A DNA stretch of 64,000 nt from Lama glama (lineage: Eukaryota). The DNA lies in assembly GCA_028534125.1 (NCBI GenBank), contig CM052816.1:54314001-54378000 (forward strand), given 5' to 3'. Shown piece by piece: positions 22,901 through 51,797 of the stretch. Under the pieces are notes generated by a model. That model was given only the letters and a program-made list of their open reading frames with translations, did no database searches and was not told where the DNA came from. The translations under genes were made by a program, and so were the position numbers. Numbering within the stretch: position 1 is the stretch's first letter; every line of letters begins with the position of its first letter.

Positions 22901-23009
22901 GTTTCATGATTCTCTGGTCAAACCACATACCTGTCCCCCTATAAAACATCCAGCAGGAAACTTCTCTAGGTGAACTAACCGGTCACACTGGATCCAGACG
23001 CCTCGGGGG

Positions 23010-23205
23010 CTGGTGGTTCTCAACATTGACAAGTACATTAGAACCCCCTGGGGAGTGCTTAGAAATCCTCACACCCAGTCTATACTCAGGCCCACTCCAT
23101 CAGAGACCGGGGGGTCCAGGCATCACTGTTTCGTTGTTTTGTTTTGTTTTGTTAACTCTCCAGGTAATTCCAACGTGCAGCCGAGGCTGAGAACCGCTGT
23201 GCTAG
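23010..23205. mobile_element. MER5A-like hAT MITE
   Basis: 'tggttctcaac...cattagaaccccctggggag...ccaggtaattccaacgtgcagccgaggctgagaaccgctg'. Confidence 0.75.
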
Positions 23206-24829: not shown

Positions 24830-25050
24830 GCTAAGTACTCTGGGGTGTGCATCCCTGGTTCTGTCACGTACCACCTACGTGCAACCTGGACAGGTTCCTT
24901 AGCTCATCCAAGCCTCAGGTTCCTCATTTGTAAACTGGGGATCATCATACCCACCTGGAGCTGCTGTGAGGATTACAAGAGTTTCTGTATGAAAAACACC
25001 AGCATAGTAAGGGATACAAAGTGTTCAGTTCACGATACATCTTATTACGT
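24830..25050 (+). mobile_element. MIR SINE
   Basis: 'gcctcaggttcctcatttgtaaactggggatcatcatac...gctgtgaggatta'. Confidence 0.75.
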
Positions 25051-25139
25051 TTGTTAAAACGTAAGATCCTCTACAAGCTCCACTGATGGAAACTGTACTG
25101 AGTGAGCCGAGCAGCATCAGCAGGAGATGGGAGGCAGGC

Positions 25140-25540
25140 CACCGGGACAGGATGAGCACCCCTTGATGAGCGGGGTCTGGTGTGCGAGGTGCTAAATGCA
25201 CTCAGCGGGTGAGAAGAGGGGAGAGTGGCCAGGGGAACAGCACAGAGGACAAACTTGACCTGGGTCAGGGGAGCAAGAGTTCTCCAGGAGGACAGGAGGG
25301 CCTAGGAAGAGCAGGCTGGACAAGAGCAACACCCGGAGGCATGAAAAGGCGTGGTGTGTTTAGGGAACCACAAAGAGCTTGGTGCAGCCGGAGCAAAGTG
25401 GCAGCAAAAGAGGTGGAGATTAAGCAGGAGTGCAGCGGGCTTTGTTTCCTCCTAAGACACCCAACCATTGCTTTTTAGACCCTGAGGAGCCACTGGGGAG
25501 CTCTTTAGAATGTGGACTGTGGACTGGGTGGGCTGATAAC
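25140..25540 (-). mobile_element. L2 fragment, apparently continuing at ~36200-36480
   Basis: Purine-rich L2-antisense motifs: 'gaggagccactggggagct' on the left of the hAT element and 'ggaggcaggggagagcagttaggaggc' on its right. Confidence 0.55.
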
Positions 25541-26268
25541 CCATGGCGTGCTGGCAAAGGTTTAATAACGGGCTTGCTGAAAACTGCACAGACATTCATA
25601 CCTACGTTTATTACAAATTTTACTGATAAAAAGCAGCGGTAAGAAAACTATGGTCCAGGGGCCAGTCTCCTGGTTCTGTAAGTACAATCTTATTAGAACG
25701 CAGCCTTGCCCGTTCACCGACACCCATCGATGGCTGTGTTCCCACCATGGTGCAGAGCTGAGGTGAGCAGGGGCACGAGACTGTAGGGCCTCAGATATTT
25801 ACCATCTGGCCCTTTAAGAAAAAAAATCTCCAACTTTCTATAAAGAAGGTGCAGCACAGTTTCTAAATAATACTAAAATATAAAATACTCTTTATCATAA
25901 ATTCTCCAGTCAATTGATTCTCACAAAATATTTCTGTTGACTTTTTAGTGGCCTAACTATGGTTGCAGCGAATGCATGAGTGGAGTTTCGACCTGAATGT
26001 GAGTTGGTACTTTCATGCGCATTGAGCAATAAGACAAAAGTAAGATAACAGATGTACAGGAGCCCCACTTACTCATCAGTGATGTGAGCAACTGCTGTGC
26101 TGATTCATATAATAGTTTTTGAATACTGGAGGAATATTTCTTCATTTTGGGGGCACTATTCACAATGAAACAGCTACAGATTTTATGTATATTTAAATTT
26201 AATCTGCATAATTAATATTTCCTCTATCACTTTCTTAAGTTTAGAAAATCAACCAAAAAATAAATTCC
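25541..26268. mobile_element. MER63-like (hAT-Blackjack) DNA transposon, left part
   Basis: TIR-like 'ccatggcgtgctggcaaaggtttaataacgggct' pairs with the right end at ~36197. Confidence 0.65.
25645..25840. mobile_element. MER58A-like MITE nested in the MER63-like element
   Basis: 'ttattagaacgcagccttgcccgttc...atatttaccatctggccctttaagaaaa'. Confidence 0.75.
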
Positions 26269-28496
26269 GGGAATTTTTAGGTTCAAGATGGTGACACAGG
26301 AGAATCCTGAACTCAACTCCTCCTACAGACACACCAAATCGATGAATATGCACGGAACAATGCCCTCTGAAAGAAACTCAGAAACTAGCTGAGCAGCTCC
26401 TACACAACAAGTGAATGAGAAAAAAACCCGCACTGAAGAGAAACAGTCTTGCCATAAAGCCCACCCCCAGCACCGCAACACACAATCAGGTGGAAGCGCA
26501 CAATTCCCAGCTTCCCCAGAGAAGCAAGGGGTTTGGATGCCACATCTGGGGCCCAACTCTTAAGGCTTCCACCTAAGAGATGGACCCCCAAAACACCTAG
26601 TTTTGAAAAACAATGGGCTTGTGTCCATGAGACCCACCAGACTACAGGAAACGAATAGTTCTTAAAGAGCTTAAGTGGACTCACTGTGGCTAAACCAAGG
26701 GCCCAGTGCAGAGACAGCAAACTGAAATTCACCCAGTCTTTCTGTGAAAGATGCCTATTTGCTTATCTTAAAAGCTTCAACCTGAAAGGCAGGCTTCGAA
26801 TTGCCCACACAACTAGGGGCCGACTGCTGTACTCTCTAGAGGTTGGGAGGCTAGCAGGCCTCATTCTTGCTCTCTCCCTGGCCTCATGTCACTTGTATCT
26901 CCCTGAAAGAGGCTTGTGCACGTACATGGTACCCTGGCTTTTGTGGCTGACAACCAGGAGACACCCCCTGATTGCCTGGCTCTAGTGGCCAGCAGGACTT
27001 ACTTTCCCAGGTTCCACAGGACAGCAACAAACAGAGAAATAGTTCTTAACAGGCTATTCCCAAAGGGCACAGCATGGAGGCAGCACACAGAGACACCTGT
27101 CTCCCAGTCTTACCCTGTAGGAGCTATATTTACCTAGGTTAAGAGCTGCTGCCTGAGGGTCCAGCTTCCAATTAGCCTCGACCTAAGTGCTGACTAGATC
27201 ATCTCCTTTGAGACACTGACATGTCTTGGCACACTTTCAACTACTTGGAACCACCAAAACCAGTAGCTGCTTCAACAACCACAAAGGTAAGAGAGACAGC
27301 CAAGAGCCAGGGCACGGCAGAATGATAAGGCTCATCTCCTAAATGAGACTGCTCCATGAAGACAGAGGGGTGGCTGGTTTTTCTAACAACAATAAAAAAC
27401 CCAACACAGAGTGCCAAGAAAAGTGAAGAAACAGAAGAACATGTTCCAAATGAAAGAAAAAGAAAAAAAATCTCAGAAAAAGACCTTAATTAAATGGAAA
27501 AAGTGATTTACCCTAACAAAGATTTACCTTCAAAATAGCAGTCATAAATGGGTCTACTGCGGTCAGGAGAAAAAGGCAAAAACAAAGTGAGAATTTCAAT
27601 AAAGAGATACGGAATATAAGTAAGTTCTAAGCAGAAAGCACAGAGATGAGTAATACAATAAGTGCACTGCAAAATCCAACAGAGGAGTTTCAGCAGCAGA
27701 TGAGATGAAGCAGAAGAAAGGATCAATGAACTCAAAGGCAGGGCAGTGGAGTTCGCCCACTGAGGGCAGCAAAAAGAAAAAAGAATGAAAAAGAATGAAG
27801 ACAGTTTAAGAGATTTATGGCACAACATCAAGTAGACCAATATTTGCATCACAGGAATTCCAGAAAGAAAGGGGCAGAAAACTTAGTTGAAGAAATAATG
27901 GCCAAAAAACTTCATCTAGGGAAGAAAATAAATGTCAGGTCCACAAAGCCCAAAAAGTTGCAAATAAGATGACTCCAAATAGACCTATACCAAGACACAT
28001 TATAATTAAACCATCAAAAGTTAAAGACATGGGGCCCATCTTAAAGGCAGCAAGAGAAAAACAATGTATTATGTACAAGGAAACTCTCATAGGACTGAGC
28101 AAATTTTTCAGCAGAAACCTTGCAGGCCAAAAGGGAGTGGCATGATATAGTCAAAGTGCTGAAAGATAAAAAGCTGTCAACCAAGAATTCTCTGGCTGGC
28201 AAAGCTGTCCTTCAGAATTGAAGAACAGAGTTTTCCAAGCAAGCAAAAGTTGAATAGGTTATGAACTTTAATTAGACTGGCCTTAGAAGAAATGTTAGAG
28301 AGACATCTTTAAGTTGAAACAAAAGAACACTAATTAGCAACAGGAAAACAAAATATAAATCTCACTGGTAAAGGTAAACATATAGTAAAATATGAAATAA
28401 TCTAATGTAAAGATGGTAGATTAATCACCTATAAAAGACAAAAGTAGCAAGTATAACTTAACTACAATGATTTGTTAAAAAATACACAAGATAAAT

Positions 28497-29565
28497 GCAG
28501 GACAGTCACATGCAAAAGAATAAAACTCAACCACCACCTTACACCATACACAAAAGTCAACTCAAAATGGATTGAGCGCTTGAACATAAGACCTGAAACA
28601 ATAAAACTCTTAGACGAAAACATAGGTGATAACTCCTTGACACTGGCCTCGGTGGTGATGTTTTAAAAATCTGATACCAAAAGCAAAAGCAACAAAAGCA
28701 TAAATAAACGAGAGGGACTTCATCAAACTTAAAGACTCCTGCACAGCAAAGTTAATCACCAAGAAAACAAAAAGACAACCTACCAAATGGGAAAAAATAT
28801 TTGCAAATCATATCTGATGAAGAGCTAATATCCAAAATAGATAAAGAATACATACAACTTACTAGCAAAAATCCAAATAATCCAATTAAAAAATGAGCAG
28901 AGGATCTGAAGAAGACATACAGATGTTACACAAATAGGTGCTCAACATCACTAATCATCAGGGAAATGCAAATCAAAACCACAATAAGATTATCACCTCA
29001 TACCTGTTAAAAACTAAAGAAATAACAAGTGTTGATGAGGATATGGAGAAAAAGGAACCCTTGTGCATGGTTGGTGGGAATGTAAATTGGTGCAGCCGCT
29101 ATGGAAAACAGTATGGAGAATTCTCAAAAAATTAAAAATAGAACTACCATACAATCCAGCAATTCTACTTCTGGGTATTTATTCAAAGGAAACAAAATAA
29201 CTAACTAGAAAAGATACATGGACCCTCATGTTCATTGCAACATTATTTATAACAGCCAAGATATGGAAACAACCTAAGTATCCACTGATGGATGAGCGAA
29301 TAAAAAATTGTGGTATACATATACAACAGAATATTATTCAGTCAGAAAAAAGAATGAAATCTCGCCACGTTTGACAACATGGATGAGCCCTAAAGGCATT
29401 ATACTAAGTAAAATATATCAGATACACAGAGAGAAATACATATGATCTCTCTTACATGTGGAATTAAAACAAAACAAAAAAAACAATCTTAAATTACAGA
29501 GCCGGGGGTGAGGGTTGGGAGAAATGGGTGATAGGGCTCAAAAGTAAAAAGAAAAGAGAAAAAAA
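28497..29565 (+). mobile_element. L1 ORF2 3' end and partial 3' UTR lying in the spacer of the host L1
   Basis: Paralogous to host 34165-35260; ends in an A-rich tract at ~29546-29565. Confidence 0.85.
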
Positions 29566-29569
29566 CCTT

Positions 29570-29885
29570 GTTCTCAAGTCCAGACTGAAGGAAATAGACA
29601 TGACTGTTTCTAGACTATATTCTCTTGCTATAACAGACTTTATTAGGAAAATAAATAAAACTCAAATGAGGTCTGAGAGTTAAACGGTAGTAAAGTATCA
29701 TTGTTAACTTCATGGCTTTGATGACTGTACTTTGGTCATGTATATGAGTGCCTTTGTTTACAGAAAATACAAATAAAAGTATTCAGAGTTAATGCTGCTT
29801 CATGTCACCAACTATTCAAATAGTCAAGGAAAAAAGAGGTTCTTTTTTTTATACTGTTTTTACAGCTTTTCTGAAAGTATGAGAA
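29570..29885 (+). mobile_element. Ancient L1MC-like 3' UTR fragment
   Basis: 'gtatcattgttaacttc...gatgactgtactttggtcatgta...cagaaaatac' motifs; much more diverged than the flanking L1. Confidence 0.65.
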
Positions 29886-32648
29886 AGAGAGATAGAAAAG
29901 AGAAAGAGACACACAGGTAGGCAGGCAGGCAGGCAGGCAGACCGACCTGGGCTAGGAACACCTGTATGAAGTTGATAGCACTGAAGTTCATGGTATAAGC
30001 CATGCTGATGAGTCCAACTGCTGGAGTCACCCTGCCCAGTCTCTAAGCTAATTCAGGCTGATATATATACACTAAGAGCCTAATTCTACAGTGGTTTCTT
30101 GATTCCCCACTACTTACCTGCACAGCCTGCTTGACTAGAACTCAGAAAACCTTCCCAGCTCTAGCTAGGCCCCTACACTCACTAAAGGACCTAAAGCCTG
30201 CTCTCCAGAATTTCCGCCCACTGGCTGAACCCCCAAATTAGCAGCCAGCTGACTAAATATCTCAATCATCTGAAAATATAGTCTGACCTGCCCTACCCAC
30301 CATATCTCCCTTAGAATGCTTCTGCAGGTCCAGATCAAGCTTGAATATGGAATAGCTTTTTACCCTTTCATTTGCTAAGGTCCCAATAGCCTTCCCAAAC
30401 TCCCCTTTCTAGGCTAAAATGGAATTAATGGATAATATCTCTGAAGAATTTAGGGGATGTACACAAAGGAAGAAGAGGGCAAACAAGAAAAAGGGCTGGG
30501 AGGGACGACTGGGGCAGTAGTAGCTGCACAAACCAAAGGAGGAGATTCAGAGGGGACAAGGGGTTCAGCAAGGTAAGGAAGTACAATGAAAAAGTCTTTG
30601 GACCTGATCCTCGGGAAGCCACTAGGGCACTGTGAGAGGACATCTTCATAGACTCTGGGGCAGAAGTGAAATGCTGAGCTGCTGGATGTCAGAGGTAAGG
30701 GCAGCAAAGAAGTTTTTCGAGGAAAGGCAGAGGTGAGATTGTTTGTTAAGAGTTTAAAAACGAAATATTTCAGGCATGTGGGGATCCCCCTCCACCATGT
30801 TTTAGTAGGCTAATAGAAGAAGCTATGGACTGAAAATAAAAATATGGGCAAGAGTGGTTGGGGTATTTGATCATGGGACAGAATTAAGGGGACAGGTAAA
30901 AGATTTGACTTGGAAAGTAGAGACTGTAGGGGACCCAAAAATAGGGATAGGGGATGGAAATAATACATGAAGATAGTAATTTTTTAAAAAGACGCAAATT
31001 GTAACATCAAAAACATAAAAGTAAAAATGTAGAGCTTTAGAATGCATTTAAACTTCATTTAAGTTATATCAACTTAAAATAGACTTATAAATATGTTTTA
31101 TGTAAGCCTAATAGTAATCACAAGGCAAAAACCTACAGCAGATACACAAAAGAGAAAGAGAAAGGAATCTAAGCATATCACCATGAAAAGCAACAAGTCA
31201 CAAAGGAAGAGAGCAAAAGAAGGAAGGAACAAAGGAATTGCAAAACGGCCAGAAAGCAATGAACAAAATGGCAGTTAGCCCATACTTAACAATAATAACT
31301 TAAATGTAATGGACTGCATTCTCCAGTCAAAAAACCAAGTGGCTAAATGGATAAAAAATAAGACCCAAATATATGCTGCCTATAAAAGACTTACTTCTGC
31401 TTTAAGAACACACACAGACTCAAACTAAAGGATGGAAAAAGAGATTCCACACAAATGGAAAACAAAGAAAGCTGGGGTAGCTACACTTACAACAGACAAA
31501 ATAGACTTCAAGATAACGACTATGATAAAAGACAAAGAAAGTCATTATATAATGATAAAGGGATCAATCCAACACGAGGATATAACATTTGTAAATATTT
31601 ATGCACCCAACAAGGAACATGTAATTATATGAAGCAAACATTAACAGATGTAAAGGGAGAAGTTGACAGCAATACAATAGTAGCAGGGGATTTGAATGCC
31701 CCACTTTCATCAATGGATAGATGATCCAGACAGAAAAATCAATAAAGGAACATTAGACTTAAACTATATAGTACACCATATGGACTTCAGATATTCACGG
31801 AACATTCTATCTGAAAGCAGGAGAATACCTTCTTCTTAAGTGCACAGAGAATATCCTCCAGGATAGATCACATGTTAGGCCACAAAACAAGTCTTAATAA
31901 ATTCAAGATAACTGAAATCATATCAAGCATCTTTCCCAACCACACTGGTATGAAACTAGAAACAATTACAAAGAGAAAACTTGAAAATTCACAAACTGGA
32001 GATTAAATAACAGCTACCGAACAACCAACAGTCAAAGAAAAAAGAAATTTAAAAATACCTTAAGACAAATAAAAAATGGAAAATACAACATACCCAAAAC
32101 TTACGGGATGCAGCAAAAGCACTTCTAAGGGGGAAGTTCATAGAGATAAACACCTACCTTAGAAACCAGAAAGATCAAATAAACAACTTAACTTTATACC
32201 TCAAGGAAACAGAATGACAAATTAAGCCCAAAGTTACTAGAAGGAAGGAATTAAAGATCTGAGCAGAAATAAATGAAATAAAACTAAAAAGACAATAGAA
32301 AATATCAATGAAATTAAGCACTTTTTTTTAATAAAATAGTCAAATCTTTAGCTAGACCCACCAAGAAGAGAAGAGAGAAGACTCAAAATCAGAAGTGCTA
32401 TATAGTGCTATAAGAGATTCTCAACAAAATATTACTAGACCAAATTTAACAGTTATGTTAAAAGGACCATACACCATGATAAAGTGGGATTTGTCCCTGG
32501 GATTCAAGGATGCTTCAACATTTGCAAATCAATGAATGTGATAGACCACATAAACAAAATGAAAAATAAAAATCATGATCATCTCAATAGATGCAGAAAA
32601 AGCACTGGACAAAATTCAACATCCATTAATGATAAAAACTCTCAACAA

Positions 32649-33192
32649 CTCTTCACAAAGATGGCACCAAAAGTGAAGCAGGAAAACCCTGCCTCTCCCA
32701 AAACAAGACTTTGAAGGCCAAGAAAGCAGTGCTAAAAGTCGTCTCCAGCCACAGCCACACACCACATACCCAACACTCACCCACCCACACACACACACAC
32801 AATACATGTTACCCACCTTACAGCACTGAAAATACTGTAGCTCTGCAGGCAGCCCAGATGTCCTGGAAGAATGCCTCCAGGAGAAACCAGCTTTTACTAT
32901 GCCATCATCAAATTCCCCCTGACTACCCAGTGAGCCATGAGGAAGACAGAAGACAACACCACATTTGTGTTTATTGTGGCTGTCAAGGCCAACAAACACC
33001 AGCTCACATAGGCTGTGAAGAGACTCTGTGACACTAACACAGCCCAGATTAACACCCTAACCTGACCTGGTGAGAAGAAGGCATTTGTTTGGCTCCAAAC
33101 TGCAATGCTTTGGATGTTGCCAACAGAACTGGAATCATCTAAACTCAGACCAGACTAATTCTAAATATAAATTTTTTTTTTACCAGAAAAAG
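32649..33192 (+). pseudogene. RPL23A: RPL23A processed pseudogene inserted in L1 ORF2
   Basis: Intronless, ATG 32661 to TAA 33140-33142. Remnant peptides [40 protein letters not shown] and ALDVANRTGII*, with frameshifts and stops. Short A tail; TSD aaactct[ca/tg]acaa at 32636-32648 and 33193-33205. Confidence 0.95.
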
Positions 33193-35589
33193 AAACTCTT
33201 GACAAAGTGGGTGTAAAGGGAATGTACCTCAACATAATAAAGGCCATATATGGCAATCCCATGGCAAACATCATACTCAGTGGTGAGAAACTTGAAGCTT
33301 CTCCTCCAGGATCAGGAACAAGACAAGGATGTCCACTCTTGCCATTTTTATTCAACATAGTACTGGAAGTCCTAGCCAGAGAAACTAGCAAAGAGAAAGA
33401 AAAGGCATCAAATTGGAAAGAAAGAAGTAAAACTGTCTCTATTTGCAGATGATATGATCTTCTAAAATAGAAAACCCTAAAGACTACACCCAAACACTGT
33501 TAGAATTAATAAATAAATTCAGGAAAGTCACAGGATACAAAAATCAATATAAAATAAGCTGTGTTTTCTGTGTGCTAATGATGAACTAACAGAAAGAGAA
33601 AATAAGAAAACAATTCCAGTTACAAGTGCAGACAAAAGAAAAAATACCTAGAAATAAATTAAACCAAGGAGTTCTAAGACTTGTACTCTGAAAACTTTAT
33701 AAAACATTAATGAAAGAAATTGAGGAAGACACAAATAAATGGAAGTCTATTCCAGGGTCATGAACTGGAAGAATTAATATTGTTAAAATGCCCATACTAC
33801 CCAAAGCAATCTACAGATTCAATGCAATTCCTATTAAAAAATTCCAATGGCTTTTTTCACAGAAATAGAACTAACGATCCTAAAATTTGTATGGACCACA
33901 GAAGACCCTGAATAGCCAAAGAAACCTTGGGAAAGAAGAACAAAGCTGGAGGCATCATGCTTTCTGATTTCAAACTGTATTACAAAGCTGTAGTATCCAA
34001 AACAGTATAGCATTGGCATAAAGACAGACACATAGATCAATGGAACAGAGAATCCAGAAATAAATCCATGCATATATGGTCAAACTACGTACAACAAACG
34101 AGCCAAGAATACACAATGAGGAAAAGATAGTCTCCTCAATAAATGATGCTGGGAAGGAAAACTAGACAGTCACACGCAAAAGGATGAAACTAGACCACTA
34201 TCTTACATCACACACAAAAATCAACTCAAAATAGTTAAAGACTTGAACATAAGACCTGAAACCATACCACTAAAAGAAAACATGGGGGACAAGCTCCTTG
34301 ATCCTGGCAATGATTTTTTTTTTTTTTACATTTGACACCAAAAGCAAAAATAAACAAGTGGGGATACATCAAACTAAAATGCTTCTGTACAGCAAAGTAA
34401 ACCATGAGCAAAATGAAAAGACAACATACTGAACAGGAGAAAATATTTGCAAATCATAGATCTGACAAGGGAGTTCATGATCTAAAAACATATAAAGAAC
34501 TCATACAAGTAAACAGCAAAAAATCTGATTAAAAAACGTCCAGAGGATTTGAATAGATATTTTTTCAAAGAAGACATACAGATGGCCAACACATACACAA
34601 ATGGGTGCTCAATATCACTAATCACCAGGAAAATGCAAATCAAAACCACAATGAGATATCAACTTACACCCATCAGAATGGTTATTATCAGAAAGACAAG
34701 AAATAAGTGTTGATGAGGATGTGAAGAAAAGGAAACCTTTGTGAACAGTTGGTGGGAACGTAAGCTGGTGCAGCCACTATGAAAAATAGCATGGAAGTTC
34801 ATCAAAAAATTAAAAATAGAACTACCGTATGATCCAGCAATTCCATTTCTGTATTTATCTGTAGGAAATAAAATCACTATTTGGAAAAGATACATGCACC
34901 CTCATATACACTGCAGAATTATTTATAATAGCCAAGATATGGAAACAGCCTATGTGTCCATCAACAAATGACTGGATAAAGAAAATGTGGTTTATATGTA
35001 CAATGGAATATTATTCAGCTATAATAAAGAAGGAAATCCTGCCATTTGTAATAATATGAGTGGACCTTGAGGGCATTATGACAGATGGAGTAAGTCAGAG
35101 AAGGACAAACACTATATGATGCCACTTATATGTGGAATCTAAAAACAAAAACCAAAGAACCTGAGGTCACAAAGAGAACAGACTGGTGGTTGCCAGAGGC
35201 AGGGGGTTGAGAGGCGGGGGGTTGAGAGGTGGGTGAAATGGGTACAGGCAGTCAAAAGATACAAATTTTCAGTTCTGAAATAAATTAGTCCTGGGGAATG
35301 TATGTACAGTGTAGTGACTACAGTTAACAATGCTGGATTGTGTATTTGAAAGTTGCTAATGGAGCAGATCTTAAATTTTCTCATCAAAAGGAAAAAAATG
35401 TGTAACTGTGTAGTGATGGATGTTAACTAAACTTATTGTGATTATTTTGCAATGTACACATATCAAATCATTATGTTGTACATTTAAAACCAATAGTGTT
35501 ATATATTAATTATTTCTCAATTTTAAAAAATCTGAGCCAATGCAGAAAACTGTGATCTAGATTAAGTCACAATGTAGATTAAAAAATTC

Positions 35590-36197
35590 TGGTTTTTATC
35601 CATATAATCTGTGTCTTTCCTGAACAGTTTTCCTGCAATGAATTTTTCTCTTCAGAATTTTCCACGGGTTTTTGACACTGTACAAAGAATTTTCAGATGT
35701 GAGGAGCTAACAAATATATAAATATAAATTAAACATTGTTTGAAGAGGGAGGGGGTTCTCTTTTTATTGTTTGTTTTCACTACAGTGGTATTAAGACCAG
35801 CACTTAAAATAACTGTTTTGTTAAAAAAAAAAAAAAAGTCCTGACTTGTACCATTTGTTGATTTCCTTGATCTAAAAATGTTCCCCACATGGCTGTTTGA
35901 AGCTAGCAACATGATGCCGCTGAACATGGAGTTAAAAAGACATGTGTGCAGCTTGACTTTATATGTTATTTTCACCATGCAGATAAGACAAATGTAAGTA
36001 ACCTCGAGAGCAAAGATAATAGTAAAATGTAGTAATGCACTGAAGAAGTTTTAGATTTGGAGTACTTACTTCCTATTTTAAAGATGTACTTACTTGCATG
36101 CATCTATAATTTAATTTTGAATAACGGCTTACAAAATTCCAGAAAATTAAACAATCAGCTCACACGACCTGTATGACCTGGCGCCTGCACACCACTA
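35590..36197. mobile_element. MER63-like (hAT-Blackjack) DNA transposon, right part
   Basis: 'taacctcgagagcaaagataatagtaaaatgtagtaa' and terminal 'aaaattccagaaaattaaacaatcagct...gcacaccact' match the recalled MER63 consensus (reverse complement). Confidence 0.7.
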
Positions 36198-36941
36198 AGT
36201 GGAGGCAGGGAGAGCAGTTAGGAGGCCAGTGCAGGACAACCAGAGGCCATAATGGGAGGAAGTGAAGTCGGGTGGAGAAATGGGCATGAGGTCAAGAGTT
36301 ATTAGGAAGACACACTCTTCAGAACTAAGTGGCTTTGAGGAAGCAGGGGGTCAGGAAAGCAAGGATGCTAAAGGTGGTTCCCAGGTTTAGAGTGGGGGTG
36401 ACTAAGTGAAAGGGAGGGGGGGTACCATTAGTCAAGCCAGGGATTTCAGCAGGGGCAGATGTGGAGTGAAATGTGGTGACCTCATTCTCATTCATCCTTG
36501 TGTATTCCCTGGGTCAAAGAGCTGGAAGGCAATTGATGCCTACTGAATAAAGGAATGAATGCCCAGCTTAGGTTCAGCGTGTGCCCCAAACTGAAAAGTT
36601 CTCCTCAAAGTGAACTAATTCCTTCTGAGGAAGCAGCTACCCACTGCTGCTTTGGAAAAAGAAAAATTTCCTATAAATTGCCAATAGCCATAAATTGCAT
36701 ACAAATAGGTAAATAAGTACAACTTTAACCTAAGTCAGGTATACAGTGATGTAAAAGTCCCTTGTGCTCAATTATTTTAAGTCTCCACTGTGAGCAGAAT
36801 CTTGCAATTGTCTGAATGACACAAATCATACAAAAATTCAGCCTTTGGAATTTTAGTTAAAATTCTTTTAGTTAAATCTTTTGGGAAAACCTCTCCTCCC
36901 CAAAGGCCAACACAGAATCTCCTCTTTAAATCCTAGTTGTC

Positions 36942-37367
36942 TGGAAACAACCTAAATGTCCATTGACAGATGACTGGATAAAGAAGTTGTGGTATATTTA
37001 CACAAAGGAATACTACTCAGCCATAAAAAATAATAAAATAATGCCATTTGCAGCAACACAGATGGACCTGGAGATTGCCATTCTAAGTGAGGTAAGGCAG
37101 AAAGAAAAAGAAAAATACCGTATGATACCACTTACATATGGAATCTAAAAAAAAAAAAAAGACAAACTAACTTATTTACAAAAGAGAAACAGACTCACAG
37201 ACATAGTAAACAAACATGGTTACCAGAGGGGAAAGGGGGTGGGAAGGGATAAATTGGGAGTTAGAGGTTTGCAGATACTAACTGTATGACTGAAGCACTA
37301 TGCTGTACACTAGAAATTGACACAATATTGTAAATTGACTATATTCCAATAAAAAATATATATATAT
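36942..37367 (+). mobile_element. 5'-truncated L1 3' end
   Basis: 14 bp TSD aaatccta[g/c]ttgtc at 36928-36941 and 37368-37381; the tail has decayed to (TA)n. Confidence 0.9.
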
Positions 37368-38466
37368 AAATCCTACTTGTCCTAAATGTGACAGAGATAA
37401 AGAGACAACATTAACTTTTAAGAAACAGCTCAGCCATGTCTGCTCACCATTCATGAGCAAACCTACCTTACCTTTAAGTCACACTAACTTTTCTTCATGT
37501 TTAGGCCTCCAGGGCTGAGGCTCACCTGACTGGGGCCTCCCTGCCCGAGCGTGCTGCTGCAGGTGAGCAGGCACGACGCTTCACACAGAGGAAAACAAGA
37601 TTTCCAGCTCAGACTTAGAGCTCCGTCTGTTTTTCCATCCTCCACTCCTGCCCGTTGCCACCACGGGCTCAGTGCCTTATCAATACCTACTGCCGTGGCA
37701 GAGAGGACAGGGTGAGAGACCAGATGGGGCACGGGAAGTCCATCACCGTGCAGGGCAGACCCCCGGGGCCTGCTGCCCTGCCGGCCATGAGGGCAGAGTC
37801 CCTGTGTCCACCGGAAACGAGGCAGCCTCCTCTCCCACCGTGCTCAGTGTAGGTGAGCAGGCCTATAATGTTCCGGTTTATCCTCTCCCTTGTCAGCCTG
37901 GTGGCTCTCTCAGCTTCAGACTTCTCGGGCCTCAGGAAGCCTGTCGTGACCAGCTCCGGCAGCCACCGGCCACCGGCAGCGCCAGCCAGGCCTGAGGTTG
38001 CGTCTCCTCGTCCTCTGAGCCGGGACTTTCCCACACATGTAATCCCATCGCTGATTCCCGGTGTCCCTGTTTCCTGCTCCCTGCTGTGAGCTCCCACTCG
38101 CCCTACCCTCGGACACCCTGCAGGTACTCCATGCACATCTGCCAGGGTTTGGCTGTTTGAACGTGGTTTCTCAGGAAAAATTGTGGTTTTGCAATATCGG
38201 AGGCCTTTCTGTAAATAGCTTGGTGTAATTATGTACTAAAGCCAACTAGAAAATTTTTGTTTACTTAGTGGCTTTACCAAATATATCAACAAATATTTGG
38301 GGCACCTACTTTGAATAAAGTATATACAGACTCAATACCATGGTAATACACTGATTATATAAAATACATCTCTAAAAGTGAACATTTCAGTGAAGTCGTG
38401 TTTTTTAAGTCATGTTTTCAGTGGCAGAGCCCTTTTCTCCCACTTCCTTTTAAAAAGTCACGCTTG

Positions 38467-38764
38467 CAGAAACAGATTCAAAGACATAGACTACAAACTT
38501 GTGGTTGCCAGTGGGGAGAGGGGGTGGGAAGGGACAGACCCGGAGTTTGAAATTTGTAGGTACTGACAGGTATATATAGAATAGATAAAAAAATTATACT
38601 GTACAGCACAGGGAAATATATACAAGATCTTGTGGTAGCTCACAGTGAAAAAGAATGTGAAAATGAGTATGTGTATGCTCATGTATAACTGAAAAATTGT
38701 GCTCTACACTGGAAATTGACACAACATTGTAAACTGACTATAACTTAATAGAAAAAAATTTTTA
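38467..38764 (+). mobile_element. Young L1 3' UTR fragment
   Basis: 15 bp TSD aaaaagtcac[g/a]cttg at 38452-38466 and 38765-38779; tttt|aaaaa target site. Confidence 0.9.
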
Positions 38765-40329
38765 AAAAAGTCACACTTGAACGTGAGCCTTGGGAGAACA
38801 CGGCAAATATTCTTTGTAATAGCACGTAAGACATATATCGGAAACTCTACATCTAATAATAATTTGGGACTAGACAGGGCTGCATCTTTAATTTCCTATG
38901 TCTTCCAAAGGTTATTGTATTAAGGAGTAAAAGTTAATTTTCAAGATACCTTTCTAATATCTACTGGGCACACACAGTGGCCTGAGGTGAGAACTGATCT
39001 AAAGCCATGTAAGATTAACAGGCCAATGGGAAATGCAGAAAAACAGTGTCACTGTCACCCTTATCAGTGGGGAGACAGCAGGCAAGTTCAGGAAGACTTC
39101 TTGGAGGGAAGAGGAGCTGGATTGAGCCCTGAAGGCAAGGAGGCTGCAAAGGATTTACACCATTCAAAACATGCAACAAAGGTAATCAAGACAATAATTT
39201 TAAGAATGATACATGTTACATATTTTGGGGAGAGAAATGGGCCAGATAACCTTCAAAGACTCTGCAATTATGTGTACTCATGGGCAGGAGAAGCACATCT
39301 CTGGGCATATTTGGATCATTTGATCTATTTGCCATGTAATGCAATATTCAACAAAAATGAGGATAAAATTAATATGCTAGTAAAATCCAAGTAGAGCCCG
39401 TTAGATGCTGAGGTTCTAGACAGATCAGAAACCTGAAGAGTGTGTTTTCAGGATGCAGAATCATAATGGTGTTAGAAATACAAAGTGGCATCAGTAAGAG
39501 GTGTATTGAGGCTACAGAAAAAATTCTCCCCACCTTGTTTCTATGGATACTTCTATGTTAATGCAGGAAATAAAAAACAAAAGAAACCACGTGGCCTCTC
39601 TCAAATATTGGAAATGCAGGACACACTGAAAACTTGTTTTTATCACCAGGGATCAGCAGTGACCATAAACCAGGAAGTGACCCTACTTATCCTTGTCTCC
39701 TGGCTCCCTGCACCTGCCACCCTCTTTCCGTTTCACCGAGAACGCCGTGGCATGAGACCACCTGAACTCTAAGGCCCCTGTTCTGCACCCTCTGAGGGGA
39801 AGCCCCCAAATCATGACCAGGCCTAGCAGCCAAGCCACTTGCCAGGAAGGAGAGGAGTAGGGGGAGCCCAACCTGGCAAATGTGGAACGAGTAGAGGCCG
39901 AGGGACAGCAAGGGGCAAGATGTGCCCAAGAGAAGGCCATTCTGCAGGTGGCAACTAGAAGGGTCCCAGGGGCAGTGGGCGGGAGGGCAAGGTGCCTGGT
40001 GCTCCCCACTCTCCACCCAGCAGCTCTAGAAAAGTAACAGCTAAGTTTTTGCTGCAGTTTGAAAACTAATGAAAGGTGCCCCCACATCTCCCCAAACAAA
40101 AATGTTCCCTGAAGGTCTGCTTAAGCACCCATCATGTAAGGGGACAGCATGCCTAGCGGCCTGGGGCCAGGGTGACAGCCTCCTTTCCCAGGAGGCTCAG
40201 TAAGTCTGCTGCTGACTCACTGGCAGAAGCTAGACTGTGCGCACAGCTCTCTGGCCCCTTCTATCGCCTGTAAAAGGGTGCGGGGACCTGGATTTCTGGT
40301 GAGATTTGGCAGGGGAGGGAAGGGCGAGA

Positions 40330-40615
40330 CCGCCAACAGAAATACTGTGTAAGCCCCAAATGCAAACCACAAATATAGCTTAAAATTTTCTAGTGGCTGC
40401 ATTAAAGTAAAAAGAAACAGGTGGAATTAATTTAATATTTTAAGCACAACATGTGCAAGATGCTATCATTTCAACCTGCTGTAATCAGCCTGGGACTGAG
40501 ATATTTTTATGAGCTAATGTACATTCTTTTTCATACTAAGTCTCTGAAATCTAGCACATGGTTTACACTTGGAGCACATCTCCATTTGACGAGCCACATT
40601 TCAGTCTGGGACAGG
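40330..40615. mobile_element. MER33-like hAT element
   Basis: 'aaattttctagtggctgcattaaagtaaaaagaaacaggtggaattaattt...tactaagtctctgaaatct...agccacatttcag'. Confidence 0.8.
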
Positions 40616-40849
40616 CAGGCCCAGGACCTAAGTTGGGCACGGCTGGAGCAGAGCTGGGGATCCTCTGCAGCACAAAATCCGGAGCAGCCTGAGTCAGGGG
40701 CCTTGTGCTTGGGAGAGGGGCGCTGGAGGGCAGAAGTGAAAACATACTTTCCTGACTATTGTTAAAACGAGAACAGACCCTGCTGATGAACTCATGATGC
40801 AAATTCACACTATCCGCATCTTGAAGCCATTCATCTTATCCAATAGCTC

Positions 40850-41010
40850 TTCAACTTCAGACTAAATCAGAAGCTCCCAGAAATGCTTGTTAAAACAGAC
40901 TGCCCAGGGTCATTTCCAAATTTCTGATTCTGCAGATCTGGCTTTGTAATTCTAACAAATTCCCAGAGCCACTGCTGCTCCAGGGAACCACACCTGGAGA
41001 ACCAATGATG
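40850..41010. mobile_element. MER5A-like MITE
   Basis: 'atcagaagctccc...cttgttaaaacagactgcccaggg...tctaacaaattcccag...gaaccacacctggagaacca'. Confidence 0.65.
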
Positions 41011-42656
41011 TAGTTTAACCTCTGGCCAGTGAGTAGCCTCCCTAGACAGCTTTTTCTACTGAATGCTCAGTCCACTTCTACTTGGTTACCTCCCATGATG
41101 GTGAACTCACTACCCACTAAGACTACCAACTTTGGTCAATTCTACTAATTCTTTCCTGTATTGAGTCTAATCTGATCCCTAAAAACATTCCACTGATTTT
41201 GCTTCAGGGCACAGTCCCTCCTTCCCCACCTGAAGTCTTCAAGAAGCTAAAGATCTACTCCTTCCCACTTCTTACTTCCCACACTCTGACAGGCTTGGTC
41301 TTATGCATTATTATTAAAGTTCTATTTTTCCTTAATCTTTACAACAATTTCAAGATTAAATAGTTTACTATAAAACAAAATACAGGCTTCCACTGATATC
41401 CACAGGGGATTAGTTCCAGGACCAATGGTGTAATAGTATGAATGAACCCCAAAAAGCTTATCTCAAAACAAGATTTCATCACTGCAAATTTGGCCAATTC
41501 AGCCCCTATTTCTGCCTCTACTATCCCCAAATAAATTACATGTGTGAAAGTGCTTGTAAAGCAGTGACTTTTAAATGTCTATCCCCATACTGAGGTCAGG
41601 CTGTGATGGTGCTTACATGGGTTTGCACCGACAGAAACAAGGTTTCCACTAAGCCAAGCTTATTCACGTTAAAAAGCTAACCTTCACTCAGAAATAGCAT
41701 CCTTCCTATATTTTCCAAGGCTGAAACAACGTTCCTGTCATGAGGAGGTGGTCAATGAAATTCCCAAGGCAGGCGCCCTGTTGTCTAGCTCTGGAAAGCC
41801 CTGTGCAAAATCCAGGTCAGACACCATGGTCTCAGTCCGCTGTCACCCAGCCTTTTTCCTGGAACCTCGATTACTCAGAAAGCAGAACGCTTCCTCTAAG
41901 CCTGGCCGTGACGTCTCCTGCCATAGCCCATGGAACACAGGCATCTTCCCTGGGGCTGCCCGTTGGGTGGGCTTTGATCCCTGACCTCATAAGAAAACCA
42001 CTTCCTCTCACTGGACACAAAACATCTTCAGCTCCCCGTGTCTTCCCCATGGCCTGTGTGTCGTCCCTTCATGAGAAGAGGGACCAGGTGATCCAGTCTG
42101 ATGGACACTACCTGCTGCAGCCCCACACTCTCTCCAGGGCTCCAGGGTTGTCACTGGCCGCTGCCTTTTGGGAATGCCGTGCTCCCCATATTCTCATGGC
42201 CAAGGCCTGGAGAAGTGACAATGGGGGCTGCAGTGCAGTCGGGCTCGGATGGGCACTTTAGGGGTGGCAGTGGTGAGCCTCTCTCTGCTTCCACCAGGCC
42301 AGCTTAGGAGGAGTTGGTATAAAGCTGGGGTCCTGGAAGCCTCCTTTTCCCCATGTGAGTCCAACCCCTGGACTGTGGTTGCAGATCCCTGAAATTCCCC
42401 AGTTTCAGCCACGTATTTGGATTCTAATTTGGACCACGTGAAAAGGCCAAAGACGAGGGGAACTAAGTCCTCATGTCTTCACTGGAATAAAGAGGTTGAG
42501 ACAGACTCTGGACCAGGATGCAGGGGTTGGCATGAAGGCGAAGGGTGTCCAAAGAAGTGTGTGCACACACGGAGTGTGGCCCTTTCGGAGGGCCTGGGCG
42601 ATGGTCCCTGGCCTAAGAAAGTGGAAAACCTAAGAAAGAAAATTCTCTCTTAGAAA

Positions 42657-42872
42657 TGGGATTGGCAAACTTTTTCTGTCAAGGGACAGAGAGTAAATAT
42701 TTTAGGTTTTGCATGCCACATAGTCTGTGTTGTACTTACTCAATTTAGCCGCTGTCATATCAAAGCGGCCACAGGTGCTACCTAACAAAGAACGTGGCTG
42801 TGTGCCGATAAAACTTTATTTACAAAACAGGCCACACTGGGCCTGCAGGTTGTAGTTTGTTGCCCTTTGTCC
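42657..42872. mobile_element. MER58A-like MITE
   Basis: 'gggattggcaaactttttctgtcaagggacagagagtaaatattttagg...ataaaactttatttacaaaacagg'. Confidence 0.8.
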
Positions 42873-43241
42873 TAGATGATACATGAAAAATCCTAGCCAG
42901 CATCCCCTGGTCCTGTGTTTTGTGCTTCTCCGGGGCCGGGTTCCCACCTCCCTGTATTGTGCTCTAGAAATGTACTCTGCTTATTTGTCCAGGGCCCCCG
43001 TGGCTTCCAGGGCAGAGACTTTGTGTCCCAGGTGCCAGCACAGAATAGGGGCTTAATACACAGGTGGGAGAAAGTTTGTGAGCGGTGGAGGGGGAGACAA
43101 TGTTTACAACAGACAAACCTCACTGAGCATTTCCAGCCTCTTGGCGAAAAGCTGCAGGTTCACACAGGAAAAGAGATCTTTGCTGACGACAAGCACCATC
43201 AGAAGACAGCAGTCTGGCTTACAGTTTCACTCCTCGTTAAA

Positions 43242-43488
43242 ATGCAAACCCAGGGGCGGATTTTGACGTCAGGGCTAAACCCCAAAAAGCAGCACCCCTG
43301 GAGCCGCCTGCAGATGGGCTGCTCCCACCCTCCAGGGAGCCCCTCCCGTCACAGACCCATCACCAATCACTTCAGCCTCCTCTGATGAGGAGGAAAAACA
43401 CTGTGGCTGGCCAGAGATATAAAAATCCTTTGTTATTGGAAAATCTAAATGTCTCCCTAGGCCTGTGCAGCACCATTAGGTGACGTCA
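43242..43488. promoter_or_regulatory. Candidate cAMP-responsive promoter/enhancer: GC box, 2x CRE, CCAAT, TATA
   Basis: GGGGCGGA 43253-43260, TGACGTCA 43264-43271 and 43481-43488, CCAAT 43363-43367, TATAAAA 43418-43424, ATTGG 43435-43439; no repeat recognised here. Confidence 0.5.
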
Positions 43489-43729
43489 ATGGCTCAGGAT
43501 ATCTGAGCCTGGTATTTCCACCCTTCTCAGAACAGCAGCTAATTTACAGCAATAAAGACATTTCTATTTAGAGCCTCAGAAAAGAAGGGGTGGCCCCTCG
43601 CTTCTGCATCCTTGAGTCCTGTGTTAAGGGCTTGTCTGCTGTCCCTGTGAGGTAGGCAGAGTTTACAGGTGACAGGAGGCTGGGACCAAGACATTTAACT
43701 CCAGTCAAGCTAAACAACAGCTTGAGGGC

Positions 43730-44160
43730 CTACTACGCGCCAGGCAGCCTGGGCACGCAAGGACAAGCAGAGCCTGGGGGACCCTGCTGAAAAGCAGACG
43801 GCAGCTCGGCACACGGTCGCCATGACAACGGTGGGAGTAGGGGCGATACAAAGCAAAGAAGGTACTTAGGGGGCTTGAGGAGGGAGATGGAACTTGATGT
43901 CTCTCGGGCTGGACCCAGGAGGATTGGTAGAATTTGCGCACGTGGAGCTGCAAGGAGACTAGCGACAGATCGGGGGGGCCCGTTCACTAAGTGAGAAAGA
44001 GAGGAAGGAGGAGCAGCAGGGCTAGGCGGGTGGGGGGGCTGCGCCTGGTTTTGGACGTGGCCTGTACTTGGCTCATTTCTAGCACGGCTGCGAACGAGTC
44101 CAAGTGGGCCCACGTCCTGCACTGCGGCTTCAAGCCCACGGCAGGTTGGTTTGCGCTGCT
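43730..44160. promoter_or_regulatory. CpG-enriched GC-rich patch (small CpG-island-like)
   Basis: Visibly more CpGs than the surrounding intron; E-box CACGTG 43939-43944, ATTGG 43923-43927, G-rich GC box near 44025-44040. Confidence 0.45.
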
Positions 44161-44909
44161 TGGGGTCAGCAGTTTGTCTCTAAAAAGCCACCAGGGTGTC
44201 CTGTGATTCTCCCTCCACCCATGTCACCTCTCATATAGACCTCATCCTTCCTCCTGGATGTCTAAACTGAGCTGTTGAGAGAATTTTTTTCCTATGAAAG
44301 TCAAGTCCCTTCCTTTCTCAGAGGTCTCCAAGGACTTGCCTCTCCGCGTGCCTTTATGGCATTAAGTGAAAATTTCCTGACTCCAGATGAAATGCTCAGT
44401 GCTGAAGGAGGCATTTTATGCTGAACTAAAGTACATGATTGCTTTTGTTATTCTGGAATATTTCTCTGATGTTCTTAAGAAGAACAAAGCTGGAGGAATC
44501 ACGCTTCTTGATTTCAAACTATGTTCAAAAGCTACAGTACTCAAGACAGCACTGGTACTGACATAAAAACAGACACATAGATCAACGTGTCTATAAATGG
44601 AGATCAACACAGAGCCCAGAAATAAACTCACATATACATGGTCAATTAACTTATGACAAAGGAGTCAAGAACATACAGTGGGGCTAAAACAGTCTCTTCA
44701 ATAAATGATACTGAGAAAATTAAACAGCCACATGGAAAAGAATGAAACTGGACCACTATCTTACATAATACACAAAACTTTACTCAAAATGGATTAAGGT
44801 CTTGAATGTAAGGCCTGAGACCATCAAACTCCTCAAAGAAACCATAGGGGATAAGCTCCTTGCCATTGGTCTTGGCAGTGATTTTTTGACACCAAAAGCA
44901 AAGGCACCA

Positions 44910-46052
44910 CATCAACAAGAGAAAGGACAAAAACCACATGATCATCTCAGTCAATGCAGAAAAAGCATTTGATAAAATTCAACATCCATTTATGATAAAA
45001 ACTCTCGCCAAAGTGGGTATAGAGGGAACATATCTCAACATAATAAAAGCTNNNNNNNNNNNNNNNNNNNNNNNNNNNNNNNNNNNNNNNNNNNNNNNNN
45101 NNNNNNNNNNNNNNNNNNNNNNNNNNNNNNNNNNNNNNNNNNNNNNNNNNNNNNNNNNNNNNNNNNNNNNNNNNNNNNNNNNNNNNNNNNNNNNNNNNNN
45201 NNNNNNNNNNNNNNNNNNNNNNNNNNNNNNNNNNNNNNNNNNNNNNNNNNNNNNNNNNNNNNNNNNNNNNNNNNNNNNNNNNNNNNNNNNNNNNNNNNNN
45301 NNNNNNNNNNNNNNNNNNNNNNNNNNNNNNNNNNNNNNNNNNNNNNNNNNNNNNNNNNNNNNNNNNNNNNNNNNNNNNNNNNNNNNNNNNNNNNNNNNNN
45401 NNNNNNNNNNNNNNNNNNNNNNNNNNNNNNNNNNNNNNNNNNNNNNNNNNNNNNNNNNNNNNNNNNNNNNNNNNNNNNNNNNNNNNNNNNNNNNNNNNNN
45501 NNNNNNNNNNNNNNNNNNNNNNNNNNNNNNNNNNNNNNNNNNNNNNNNNNNACAGAGAATACAGACTTGTGGTTACCAGGGGGGTGGAGGGTGGGAAGGG
45601 ATAGACTGGGATTTCAAAATTGTAGAATAGATAAACAAGGTTACAGTGTATAGCACAGGGAAATATACACAAAATGTTAGATAACTCACAGAAAAAAAAT
45701 GTGACAATGAGTGTGTATATGTCCAGGAATGACTGAAAAATTGTGCTGAACACTGGAATTTGACACAACATTGTAAAATGATTATAAATCAATAAAAAAT
45801 GTAAAAAAAAAGGTGGGAAGGTAGTGTAGTGTAGTTTTTCTCCAATTTTCTCAGTTTTCATCTAATTTAAATATAAAAATAACTTTAGGAGAAAAACATT
45901 GTATTTCTACCTGTTACCCCAAATATTTTCTAGATTTGAAAACATTATCTAGTAGACTTTGATCTCTGAGAGTGAAGAAACTTTTAAATTTATCTGTTTA
46001 TTAATTAGTCAATAAATAATAATACAAGTGTTTTGAATGGAAAAAAAAAAAA
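44910..46052 (+). mobile_element. Young L1 with 3'-transduced unique DNA (45812-46040) and a second poly(A)
   Basis: Intact RT peptide [24 protein letters not shown]1 poly(A) 45803-45811; AATAAA 46011-46016; A12 46041-46052; perfect 17 bp TSD caaaagcaaaggcacca at 44893-44909 and 46053-46069. Confidence 0.9.
45052..45551. other. Assembly gap (500 N) within a young L1
   Basis: Run of N in the sequence. Confidence 1.
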
Positions 46053-47565
46053 CAAAAGCAAAGGCACCAAAACCCTAAATAAACAATTGGGACTGCATAT
46101 ATCAAACTAAAAAGCTTCATGTGGCAAAGGAAATCAACAACAAATCAGGAAGGCAACCCACCAAATGAAAGAAAATGTTTGCAAATCATGTATCTGATAA
46201 GGGAGTTAATATTCAAAATATATAAAGAACTCATACAGCTCAATAGCCGAAAAAAAAAAAACCAGTTAAAAAGTGGGCAGAGAATCTGAATAGACATTAT
46301 TCCAAAGAAGATGTACAGATGCCCAACAGATACACAAATGGGAGTCTGATATCACTAACCATCAGGGAAAAACAAATCAAAACCACAGTGAGATACCAAC
46401 TCATACTTGTCAAAATGGCTATTATCAAAAAGTAAAAAAAAATAACAAGTGTTGTTGAGAATATAGAGAAAATGGAACCCTTATGCACTGTTGGGAATGT
46501 AAATTGCTGCAGCCACTATGGGAAAACAGCATGGAAGTTCCTCAAAAAATTTAAAATGGAACTACTATATGATCCAGCAGTTCCATTCCTGGGTATTTAT
46601 CCAAGGAAAATGAAATTCTTAACTCTAAACAATACATGCACCCCCATGTTTACTGTAGCATTATTTACAATAGCCAAAACACAGAAACAACCTAAGTGTC
46701 CACTGATGGTTGAATAGATAAAGAAAATGTGGTTATATACATATACAGTGGAACATTATTTAGCCATAAGAAAGAAGGAAATCTCGCCATTTGGGACAAC
46801 ATGAATGGACCTTGAGGGCATTATGGTAAGTGAAATAAATTAGACAGAGAAAAACCAATACTTTATGTTATCACTTATATATAGAATCTAAAAACAAAAA
46901 CTTGAACTCATAGATACAGACAACAGATCGGTGGTTTCCAGAGGTGGGGGTTGGGGAGTGGTTGAAAGGGATGCAGGTCAAAGGTATGAACTTCCAGTTA
47001 TAAGTCAGTCAGTCATGTACAACATGGTGACTACAGTTAATAATACTGTATTGTATATTGGAAAGCCACTGAGAGTATATCTTAAAAGTTTTCATCACAA
47101 GAAAAAAACCTGTACATATGCGATGACAGATGTTAACTAGAGTTACTATGGTGATCATTTCATATATGTACCATGAACCTTTTTCTTTTAAAAAAAAAAG
47201 CATGTGGACACGGATCCTTAGGTGGGTTGAGACACCAGCAGGAAGCCTTGGGCAGGCTCACTGCTCAGCCCCCTCCCCTTGGGAGCTGCCTTCTCACTAT
47301 GGGGAGCCCAGGTATTTTTCGTCCAGCATCCCCCTGTTTACTGCCTTGCCTGACCAGGCCTCCTCCTGATCCCACACCACCCTCCAAGTCTCTGACATGT
47401 TACGCTAAAATGGCTTACACCCTGAAACCCTTCATATCCTTGAGAGACACTGTCCCTTCTTTATAAATCTTCATCTAAGTCAAATGCCATATTTTGTAGG
47501 TTTCAAAAATAGATGATTGGTGGTATGTATATTACCAAAACATGGTCTATTTTTGAAAACCTACA

Positions 47566-48013
47566 CATACACATACACACAGTGGAATACTACTCAGCCA
47601 TAAAAAAGAATGAAAATTTGCCATTCGCAACATGGACTTGGAAGGTATTATACTTAGTGAAAAAAGACAGAGAAAGACAAATACTGTACGGTATCACTTA
47701 TATGAGGAATCTAAAAAATGAATCAAATGAACAAGGAAGAAACAGACTCACAAACTAGTTGTTACCAGTGGGGAGAGGGAAGGTGGGAGAAGTAAGATGG
47801 TGTAGGGGATTAACAGGTACAAACTACTGTGTATAAAATAAATAAGCTACAAGGATACAGTGTACAACTCAGGGAATACAGCCAATATTTTATACTAACT
47901 ATAAATGTAACATAACCTTTAAAAACTGCAAATCACTATGCTGTACACCTGAAACTTACATATACATCAACCATATTTCAAAAAAATGAATATAAACAAA
48001 AAGATTCTTATTT
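47566..48013 (+). mobile_element. 5'-truncated L1 3' end
   Basis: 'gtggaatactactcagccataaaaaagaatgaaa' through the 3' UTR; candidate TSD aaaaataga[tg/ct]attgg at 47505-47520 and 48014-48029. Confidence 0.85.
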
Positions 48014-48643
48014 AAAAATAGACTATTGGCAACAATGCTTGTTGAATACTTTTTAGCCAACAAACCTTAAAGCACGAAGTGAAAATACACATAATCCAGT
48101 ACTAAAGCATAAATCAAACAGAAAAAATACGAATACCATTGTTGTCCTCTACGATCAAACTAAAAAAGTTCTTAAATACAGCAAGGGATTAACATTCTGT
48201 TACTTCAGAAGACAACACTCAAATGCACTGTTCTGCATGATGTAATGGTTTAAAAACAACCACAGTACTAACAGAAATGATTTTTGGTTTTGATACGAAT
48301 TTATAGGAGAGAAGTGCCCAAATGCATACATACTTTTAAGAAATTAAGATAGACTATTAGAACAGTTTTTTATTTGGAGGAAGACTTTCATGCTGTCATA
48401 AGATGTAATGGTCCTGAGTTGCCCAGCCGCAAGCCAAATCCTAACTAATGTGCAGTATTAATAAAGCAGAGCAGGCTTGCAGGGGATCTCTGCTCTTACT
48501 ATTTGTCTAAGGAGCCTAATTTTGCCATAAAGCTTCTTAATTGGCAACTACGGTAAGACATGGAGAAAGCAGCAGAGAGCAGTAGTGAGAACGCAACGCG
48601 CAGTCAAGCCGACAAAACAAACGAAGCAAAGGGAACACGGTAC

Positions 48644-51575: not shown

Positions 51576-51797
<222 letters not shown>

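Follow-up and report, generated by a model that had tools for sequence, protein, structure and literature searches.

Candidate element and host gene

Analysis of the 64-kb stretch of Lama glama DNA considered here (the window) points, with a probability that we place a little above even, to a partly conserved intronic CREB/ATF enhancer within PDE8B. The putative enhancer would be a promoter-distal element of about 250 bp, common to other mammals and lodged in a long PDE8B intron, in which two full CREs are accompanied by two or three short conserved blocks. An initial annotation of this DNA had located the CREs inside a cAMP phosphodiesterase gene, and the exon map obtained with tblastn, together with the donor sites, confirms this location, the host being PDE8B on the minus strand. 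Six PDE8B exons fall within the window, all on the minus strand, at 61479–61391, 55484–55404, about 51776–51633 (the PAS exon), 50113–50024, 48703–48644 and near 1490–1448, the latter being a 43-nt exon (IHKIHRDSGDNSQT). The host intron, about 47 kb in length (1491..48643, minus strand), lies directly upstream of this 43-nt exon, and the two exons that bound it are presumably exons 10 and 11 in human PDE8B numbering. The CRE element is situated 5.2 kb inside the intron and 42 kb from the next exon, the 43-nt one. Between the element and the upstream exon, repeated pieces (44477–47960), which we take to be L1-like, surround a 500-base assembly gap (45052–45551), so that the true distance from the element to the upstream exon is uncertain. 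Elsewhere in the intron, the region 37500–38250 is unique in sequence, with a GC content of 0.59–0.63 and 21–22 CpGs per 500 bp, and is flanked by two repeat ends.

The coding part of the gene merits a separate remark. The PAS exon (51633–51776, minus strand) encodes Leu298 and Pro305 (codon CCC, human numbering); human PDE8B (P0238) reads PAFERMMGYHKG. In the available text of PMC12971441, H305P (c.914A>C) is given as a human loss-of-function variant in micronodular adrenal hyperplasia. Pro305 is found in a single one of the 188 sequences containing the motif (isoforms counted singly), namely the RefSeq entry P0231 (XP_074216180.1), which also carries Leu298 and matches the window translation over all six exons; this agreement makes an assembly error at Pro305 unlikely. 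What is a disease allele in human, H305P, may be the normal state of this lineage, for which Leu298 is a possible compensator, and this finding may merit more attention than the CREs themselves.

Motifs at the element and their rarity

The motif positions proposed in the initial annotation are all recovered in the window sequence. CRE1 (43264..43271) and CRE2 (43481..43488) are both the full palindrome TGACGTCA, to which no strand is assigned; their starts are spaced by 217 bp and they form the sole pair in 64 kb. Matches to the GC box GGGCGG (43254..43259), CCAAT (43363..43367) and TATAAAA (43418..43424) are located on the plus strand, in the claimed order of GC box, CRE, CCAAT and TATAAAA, with the TATA box directed antisense to PDE8B. 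Two matches to half CREs, likewise without strand, are found at 43347..43351 (CGTCA) and 43184..43188 (TGACG). The candidate donor GAG/GTAGGC is present as well, with its GT at 43652, and an AATAAA on the plus strand (43551..43556) lies 5' of it.

An expectation of about one full CRE per 65 kb, and less with CpG depletion, had been put forward; under Markov models the window would hold 0.89 (order 0) or 0.25–0.27 (orders 1–2). Dinucleotide shuffles contain 0.27 full CREs on average, and at least two in 4 of 100 shuffles. For CRE pairs at most 250 bp apart, the Markov expectation is 2.4–2.9e-4 per window, so that the pair is rare at this scale, but across a genome of 2 Gb 8–9 such pairs would arise by chance. 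Counting full and half CREs together, 305 bp hold 4 of the 19 sites of the window (p 0.007, random CpG placement); one-mismatch CREs are not enriched in the window (14 vs. 13.3 expected). With regard to look-elsewhere effects, TGACGTCA is the only one among 64 CG-centred palindromes to have a close pair, and close pairs number 16 among the 3944 CpG-bearing 8-mers present in the window. The box words taken singly are frequent on the plus strand of the window (25 occurrences of TATAAAA and 50 of CCAAT). There is no CpG island at the element, with a CpG o/e of 0.24–0.27 vs. 0.26 for the window. Three features of CREB-bound, cAMP-responsive distal enhancers, namely full CRE palindromes, a promoter-distal position and a location outside a CpG island, are found here.

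Two further observations concern the surroundings. At 41909–41916, 1.35 kb from CRE1, there is a 7-of-8 CRE (TGACGTCT), which is not clearly kept in the orthologous reading frame P0223 described below. Just past CRE2, the region 43750–44250 is the CpG-richest 500 bp nearby (23 CpGs, o/e 0.54, GC content 0.59) and lies outside the cover of the relatives.

Orthologous reading frames as a measure of conservation

As a proxy for conservation, the translated element was searched against protein collections, which include chance ORFs called on genomic contigs. The translated search yielded two candidates, P0218 and P0219, with identities of 59% and 61%, and both were retained; P0223 was the sole match of a further search (E 4e-14). 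P0219 has three near-identical cluster mates. The three sequences are read as the orthologous stretch of three other mammals. Neither these ORFs nor the 162-codon open frame of the window contains any Pfam family, which argues that all four are chance ORFs and that there is no hidden gene. The three ORFs change frame relative to the window, as expected of non-coding DNA read as protein. P0223 has a second match at 41890–42053 (score 133 vs. 40 for the best of 60 nulls), which indicates a syntenic locus and not a dispersed repeat. The intervening kilobase (42054–43072) is missing from the relative to which P0223 belongs, where 42053 joins 43073; it contains relics that are apparently of MER58 type and L2 type. 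Orthologous DNA was also sought in the JGI metagenomes, in which 151 pattern matches (P0220) gave no confirmed locus and a motif made from a conserved block gave no match. Chance ORFs on mammalian genomic contigs can serve as a rough gauge of non-coding conservation without orthologous DNA.

Fate of the motifs in relatives

Each motif was assessed for codon compatibility, that is, whether the residues of the relative can be encoded with the letters of the motif unchanged. CRE1 is compatible with all three orthologous ORFs, and so is the block 43261–43271. P0223, the only ORF reaching as far as CRE2, is compatible with the 7-bp 5' flank of CRE2 and its TGA, its C-terminal end LGLCSTIR-stop being in register with this TGA; the CpG of CRE2 is covered by none of the three. 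An enhancer had been one of the options considered in the initial annotation, and the compatibility of CRE1 (3/3) and of the CRE2 flank (1/1) lends it some support.

The promoter boxes behave differently. The GC box is compatible with none of the three ORFs, its CGG being replaced by Trp (TGG) in P0218 and by Gln (CAR) in P0219. Both are products of CpG decay, and since this CpG, 10 bp from CRE1, has decayed both ways, CpGs turn over here. CCAAT is also incompatible in all three (ITIH replaces ITNH in two ORFs and HHS replaces HQS in the third) and looks like a recent one-letter gain in this lineage. The TATAAAA stretch is compatible in P0219, falls within a seven-codon deletion in P0223 and is not reached by P0218, and the AATAAA at 43551 lies outside the cover of all orthologous ORFs. 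The half CREs give intermediate counts (2/3 for CGTCA at 43347 and 1/3 for TGACG at 43184). These counts suggest that the CREs persist whereas the promoter boxes are not retained; the GC box and CCAAT appear to be incidental to this lineage. In favor of an enhancer, P0223 keeps eight residues and the stop running into CRE2, yet loses the TATA box.

Over the region 43075–43372, 18 of the 273 eight-mers are compatible in all three ORFs, and 17 of these form four blocks (43243–43252, 43261–43271, 43317–43332 and 43335–43342). The first corresponds to TGCAAACCCA (43243..43252), and GGCTGCTCCCACCCTC and GGGAGCCC are located within 43317..43342, again without an assigned strand; GGCTGCTCCCACCCTC contains what we take to be a CACCC/GT box of the Sp/KLF type. 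A corresponding count for CpGs used 8 of 12, four being dropped because they lie upstream of 43075 or in CRE2, where alignment is poor or cover is lacking. Only one of the eight, that of CRE1, is compatible in all three ORFs. The remaining seven pass 9 of 21 tests, and at this rate the chance of three passes out of three at CRE1 is near 0.06.

A peak of conservation over the core is pronounced in P0219, with 57 of 63 codons identical vs. 60 of 93 upstream (p 1.4e-4), equivalent in simulation to about 95% vs. 82% identity as DNA. The excess of core over flank falls short of significance in the other two ORFs (p 0.28 for P0218 and 0.22 for P0223), and the far flank of P0223 (34/54 identical) is as alike as its core (43/74). 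The codon test is permissive. Of the two ways in which the CpG of CRE1 can decay, each ORF rules out just one, and there is a mild circularity in that the queries by which the ORFs were found contained CRE1. More weight can be given to the failures (GC box, CCAAT and the TATA deletion) than to the passes, because an altered residue excludes the motif, given a correct alignment. The evidence for CRE persistence is suggestive, not decisive.

Alternative explanations

The two CREs and the common promoter words might have come together by chance in neutral, methylated intron DNA, with no consequential binding, an explanation that we regard as possible though rather unlikely. It is in line with a CpG o/e at background level and draws on the 8–9 random pairs expected per 2-Gb genome and on the 16 close pairs among the 3944 CpG-bearing 8-mers of the window, as well as on the lack of a conservation peak in two of the three ORFs and of induction of Pde8b by forskolin in INS-1 cells, as given in the available part of PMC12974444. 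Less easily explained by chance are the three-fold compatibility of CRE1, where only 18 of 273 eight-mers are compatible, the strong peak in P0219 combined with the CRE2 flank kept in P0223, and the concentration of four full or half sites within 305 bp. Should chance nevertheless be the explanation, a textbook order of GC box, CCAAT and TATA can arise from lineage-specific letters. The motifs could also be those of an old LTR relic, with CREs, CCAAT, TATA and an AATAAA 133 bp further on as a U3-R anatomy; TATA followed by AATAAA on the same strand fits this explanation, which is nonetheless highly improbable in view of the following: the window contains no second copy, no tandem repeats and no clear terminal repeat, local direct and inverted repeats being short and chance-like; translation gives just three relatives, of which one matches in synteny across 1.6 kb; and CCAAT was apparently gained recently.

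An antisense or internal promoter is, taken as a whole, unlikely. The antisense core promoter envisaged in the initial annotation finds little backing in the relatives or downstream, with the GC box and CCAAT each compatible in 0/3 ORFs, TATA in 1/2, and AATAAA ahead of the donor. In its most explicit form, a CRE/TATA core promoter would fire antisense from about 43448 and produce a stable spliced lncRNA, possibly in this lineage only, and this we consider quite unlikely. In its favor, textbook order and spacing, with CCAAT 20–100 bp and a GC box at most 200 bp upstream, are found at only 1 of the 97 TATAWAW sites of the window, the TATA stretch is compatible in P0219, and the accessible text of PMC5740062 describes the CRE/TATA type as preferred among inducible promoters. 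Against it, besides the incompatible GC box and CCAAT and the TATA box deleted in one of two ORFs, the AATAAA at 43551, about 100 bp past the start set by the TATA box, precedes both the donor at 43652 and the first donor scoring at least 7/9 (43669) on a crude consensus score. According to the available portion of PMC6172195, such an early poly(A) signal destabilises these RNAs, and a poly(A) signal 5' of donor sites is a mark of unstable enhancer-type RNA. The proposed donor itself scores 6/9 on the simple consensus, as do about eight sites per kb and also two true PDE8B donors. No Rfam family was found at the element. The region 42900–44300 is listed in 24 runs, of which 20 contain all or part of the stretch. 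Four are recorded as RNA, with word shares of 0.38, 0.38, 0.19 and 0.10, and two are presumed to be RNA, at 0.38; these word shares are no evidence of transcription. A share of 0.38 is about what would result if a relative with 97% identity covered the whole stretch (0.97^31 = 0.39), for example as DNA or pre-mRNA. A lineage-only variant, in which a mammal-wide CRE enhancer with its GC box kept and CCAAT gained would have become a cAMP-inducible antisense promoter tuning PDE8B, alongside Pro305, has a very slim chance of being correct; if it were, regulation and the PDE8B enzyme would have shifted together.

A sense internal promoter of the PDE4D1/2 kind is very unlikely. In this case a non-coding first exon at the element would be joined to the 43-nt exon, and translation from the first Met that follows would give a catalytic-only PDE8B of some 445 residues, as the REC/PAS-less isoform suggested in the initial annotation. 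CREs are established to function in both orientations, and four PDE8B entries of 445 residues begin at that very Met (P0268, P0271, P0274 and P0280); two of them, from porpoise (RefSeq) and vole, are without explanation by a split model, but the two others have a neighbor-numbered N-terminal half and so resemble gene models split over long introns. The minus strand near the element has no combination of TATAWAW, CCAAT and GC box and, in 42900–44400, no donor scoring at least 7/9. Moreover, a known exon precedes the 43-nt exon in 209 of the 210 proteins (out of 288) that contain the latter, the one exception being an incomplete sequence that makes up half of a split gene model; one of the underlying searches gave 120 of 1441 matches listed, and non-coding exons are invisible in proteins.

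Proposed mechanism and possible cAMP feedback

Returning to the putative intronic enhancer, the sequence evidence shows the motifs, where they lie, their orthology and the codon compatibility of CRE1 and of the CRE2 flank; CREB/ATF binding, enhancer activity and a target gene are inferred. Dimers of CREB, ATF1 or CREM would occupy both palindromes when their CpGs are unmethylated, PKA would phosphorylate CREB and CRTC would enter, leading to recruitment of CBP/p300, and the element would loop to a promoter, in the simplest case the PDE8B promoter or alternatively that of a neighbor. Basal cAMP in adrenal, thyroid and Leydig cells is under the control of PDE8B. Feedback induction of PDE8B by cAMP through the element in some tissue (adrenal, thyroid, Leydig cells or striatum) is conceivable, and we advance it tentatively, with more doubt than confidence.

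Expression data from rat INS-1 cells, as far as contained in the available part of PMC12974444, give log2 changes for Pde8b under forskolin of -0.03 at 1 h, -1.15 at 8 h (padj 7e-4) and -0.15 at 16 h, and Pde8b is flat under exendin-4; this is a single rat cell line, which bears on the element only if rat has it. In the same data Crem, Pde4b and Pde10a are up at 8 h of forskolin, and 501 of about 4200 CREB-bound enhancers are inducible (PMC12974444). The primary beta-cell forskolin table is without a Pde8b row in the accessible portion of that source. Around the presumed position of rat Pde8b, rat CREB peaks comprise none of 501 inducible and one of 2100 non-inducible (chr2:24.71 Mb), and none can be mapped to the element. 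In adrenal adenomas, PDE8B is described as the transcript best correlated with cortisol output in the available text of two reviews (PMC5003917, PMC12971441), one of which adds a raised PKA-to-cAMP ratio. This correlation fits feedback without demonstrating it.

The literature searched, which was mostly non-subscription and includes the accessible parts of PMC9612118, PMC13095499, PMC10146088, PMC7662747 and PMC2762058, reports neither a CRE nor an enhancer nor an antisense RNA within this intron of PDE8B, although supplements may hold a peak. The element is a candidate cAMP-responsive element for PDE8B, with none previously reported in that literature. Elements of this kind are familiar, so that what is gained concerns this gene in particular. 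If the element proves to be CREB-bound and inducible, it would offer a defined 250-bp target for testing whether the rise of PDE8B in adenomas is feedback.

Comparison with known systems

An intronic promoter in a cAMP phosphodiesterase gene, that of PDE4D1/PDE4D2, was reportedly described by Vicini in 1997. This cAMP-inducible promoter, for which we refer to the available text of PMC10707411, and the present CRE element have in common that each lies within a gene for a cAMP phosphodiesterase, 5' of the exons coding for the catalytic part. On the other hand, the PDE4D1/PDE4D2 promoter is in sense orientation and has its own first exon, whereas here the TATA box runs antisense, a first exon was not found and the next exon is 42 kb away. 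In having a TATA box some 150 bp downstream of a CRE, the element recalls the CRE/TATA inducible promoters of Fos and Nr4a1 (PMC5740062, accessible part). Unlike in Fos and Nr4a1, the boxes are not common to the relatives, a poly(A) signal follows about 100 bp past the predicted start and the element has no known transcript.

Elements repurposed from enhancer to promoter, as described in the available portion of PMC6172195, offer a further parallel, in that a common element carries lineage-specific promoter-like words; repurposed elements, however, gain CpG and donors ahead of poly(A) signals, whereas here CpG is at background level and the poly(A) signal precedes the donors. The last comparison concerns the CREB-bound, cAMP-responsive distal enhancers of INS-1 cells, such as the intronic one of Osbpl6, in the accessible text of PMC12974444. 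Whereas those enhancers are defined by CREB/CRTC2 ChIP and inducible H3K27ac and the present element is known from its sequence and indirect conservation, it resembles them in being intronic, promoter-distal, outside CpG islands and endowed with full CREs.
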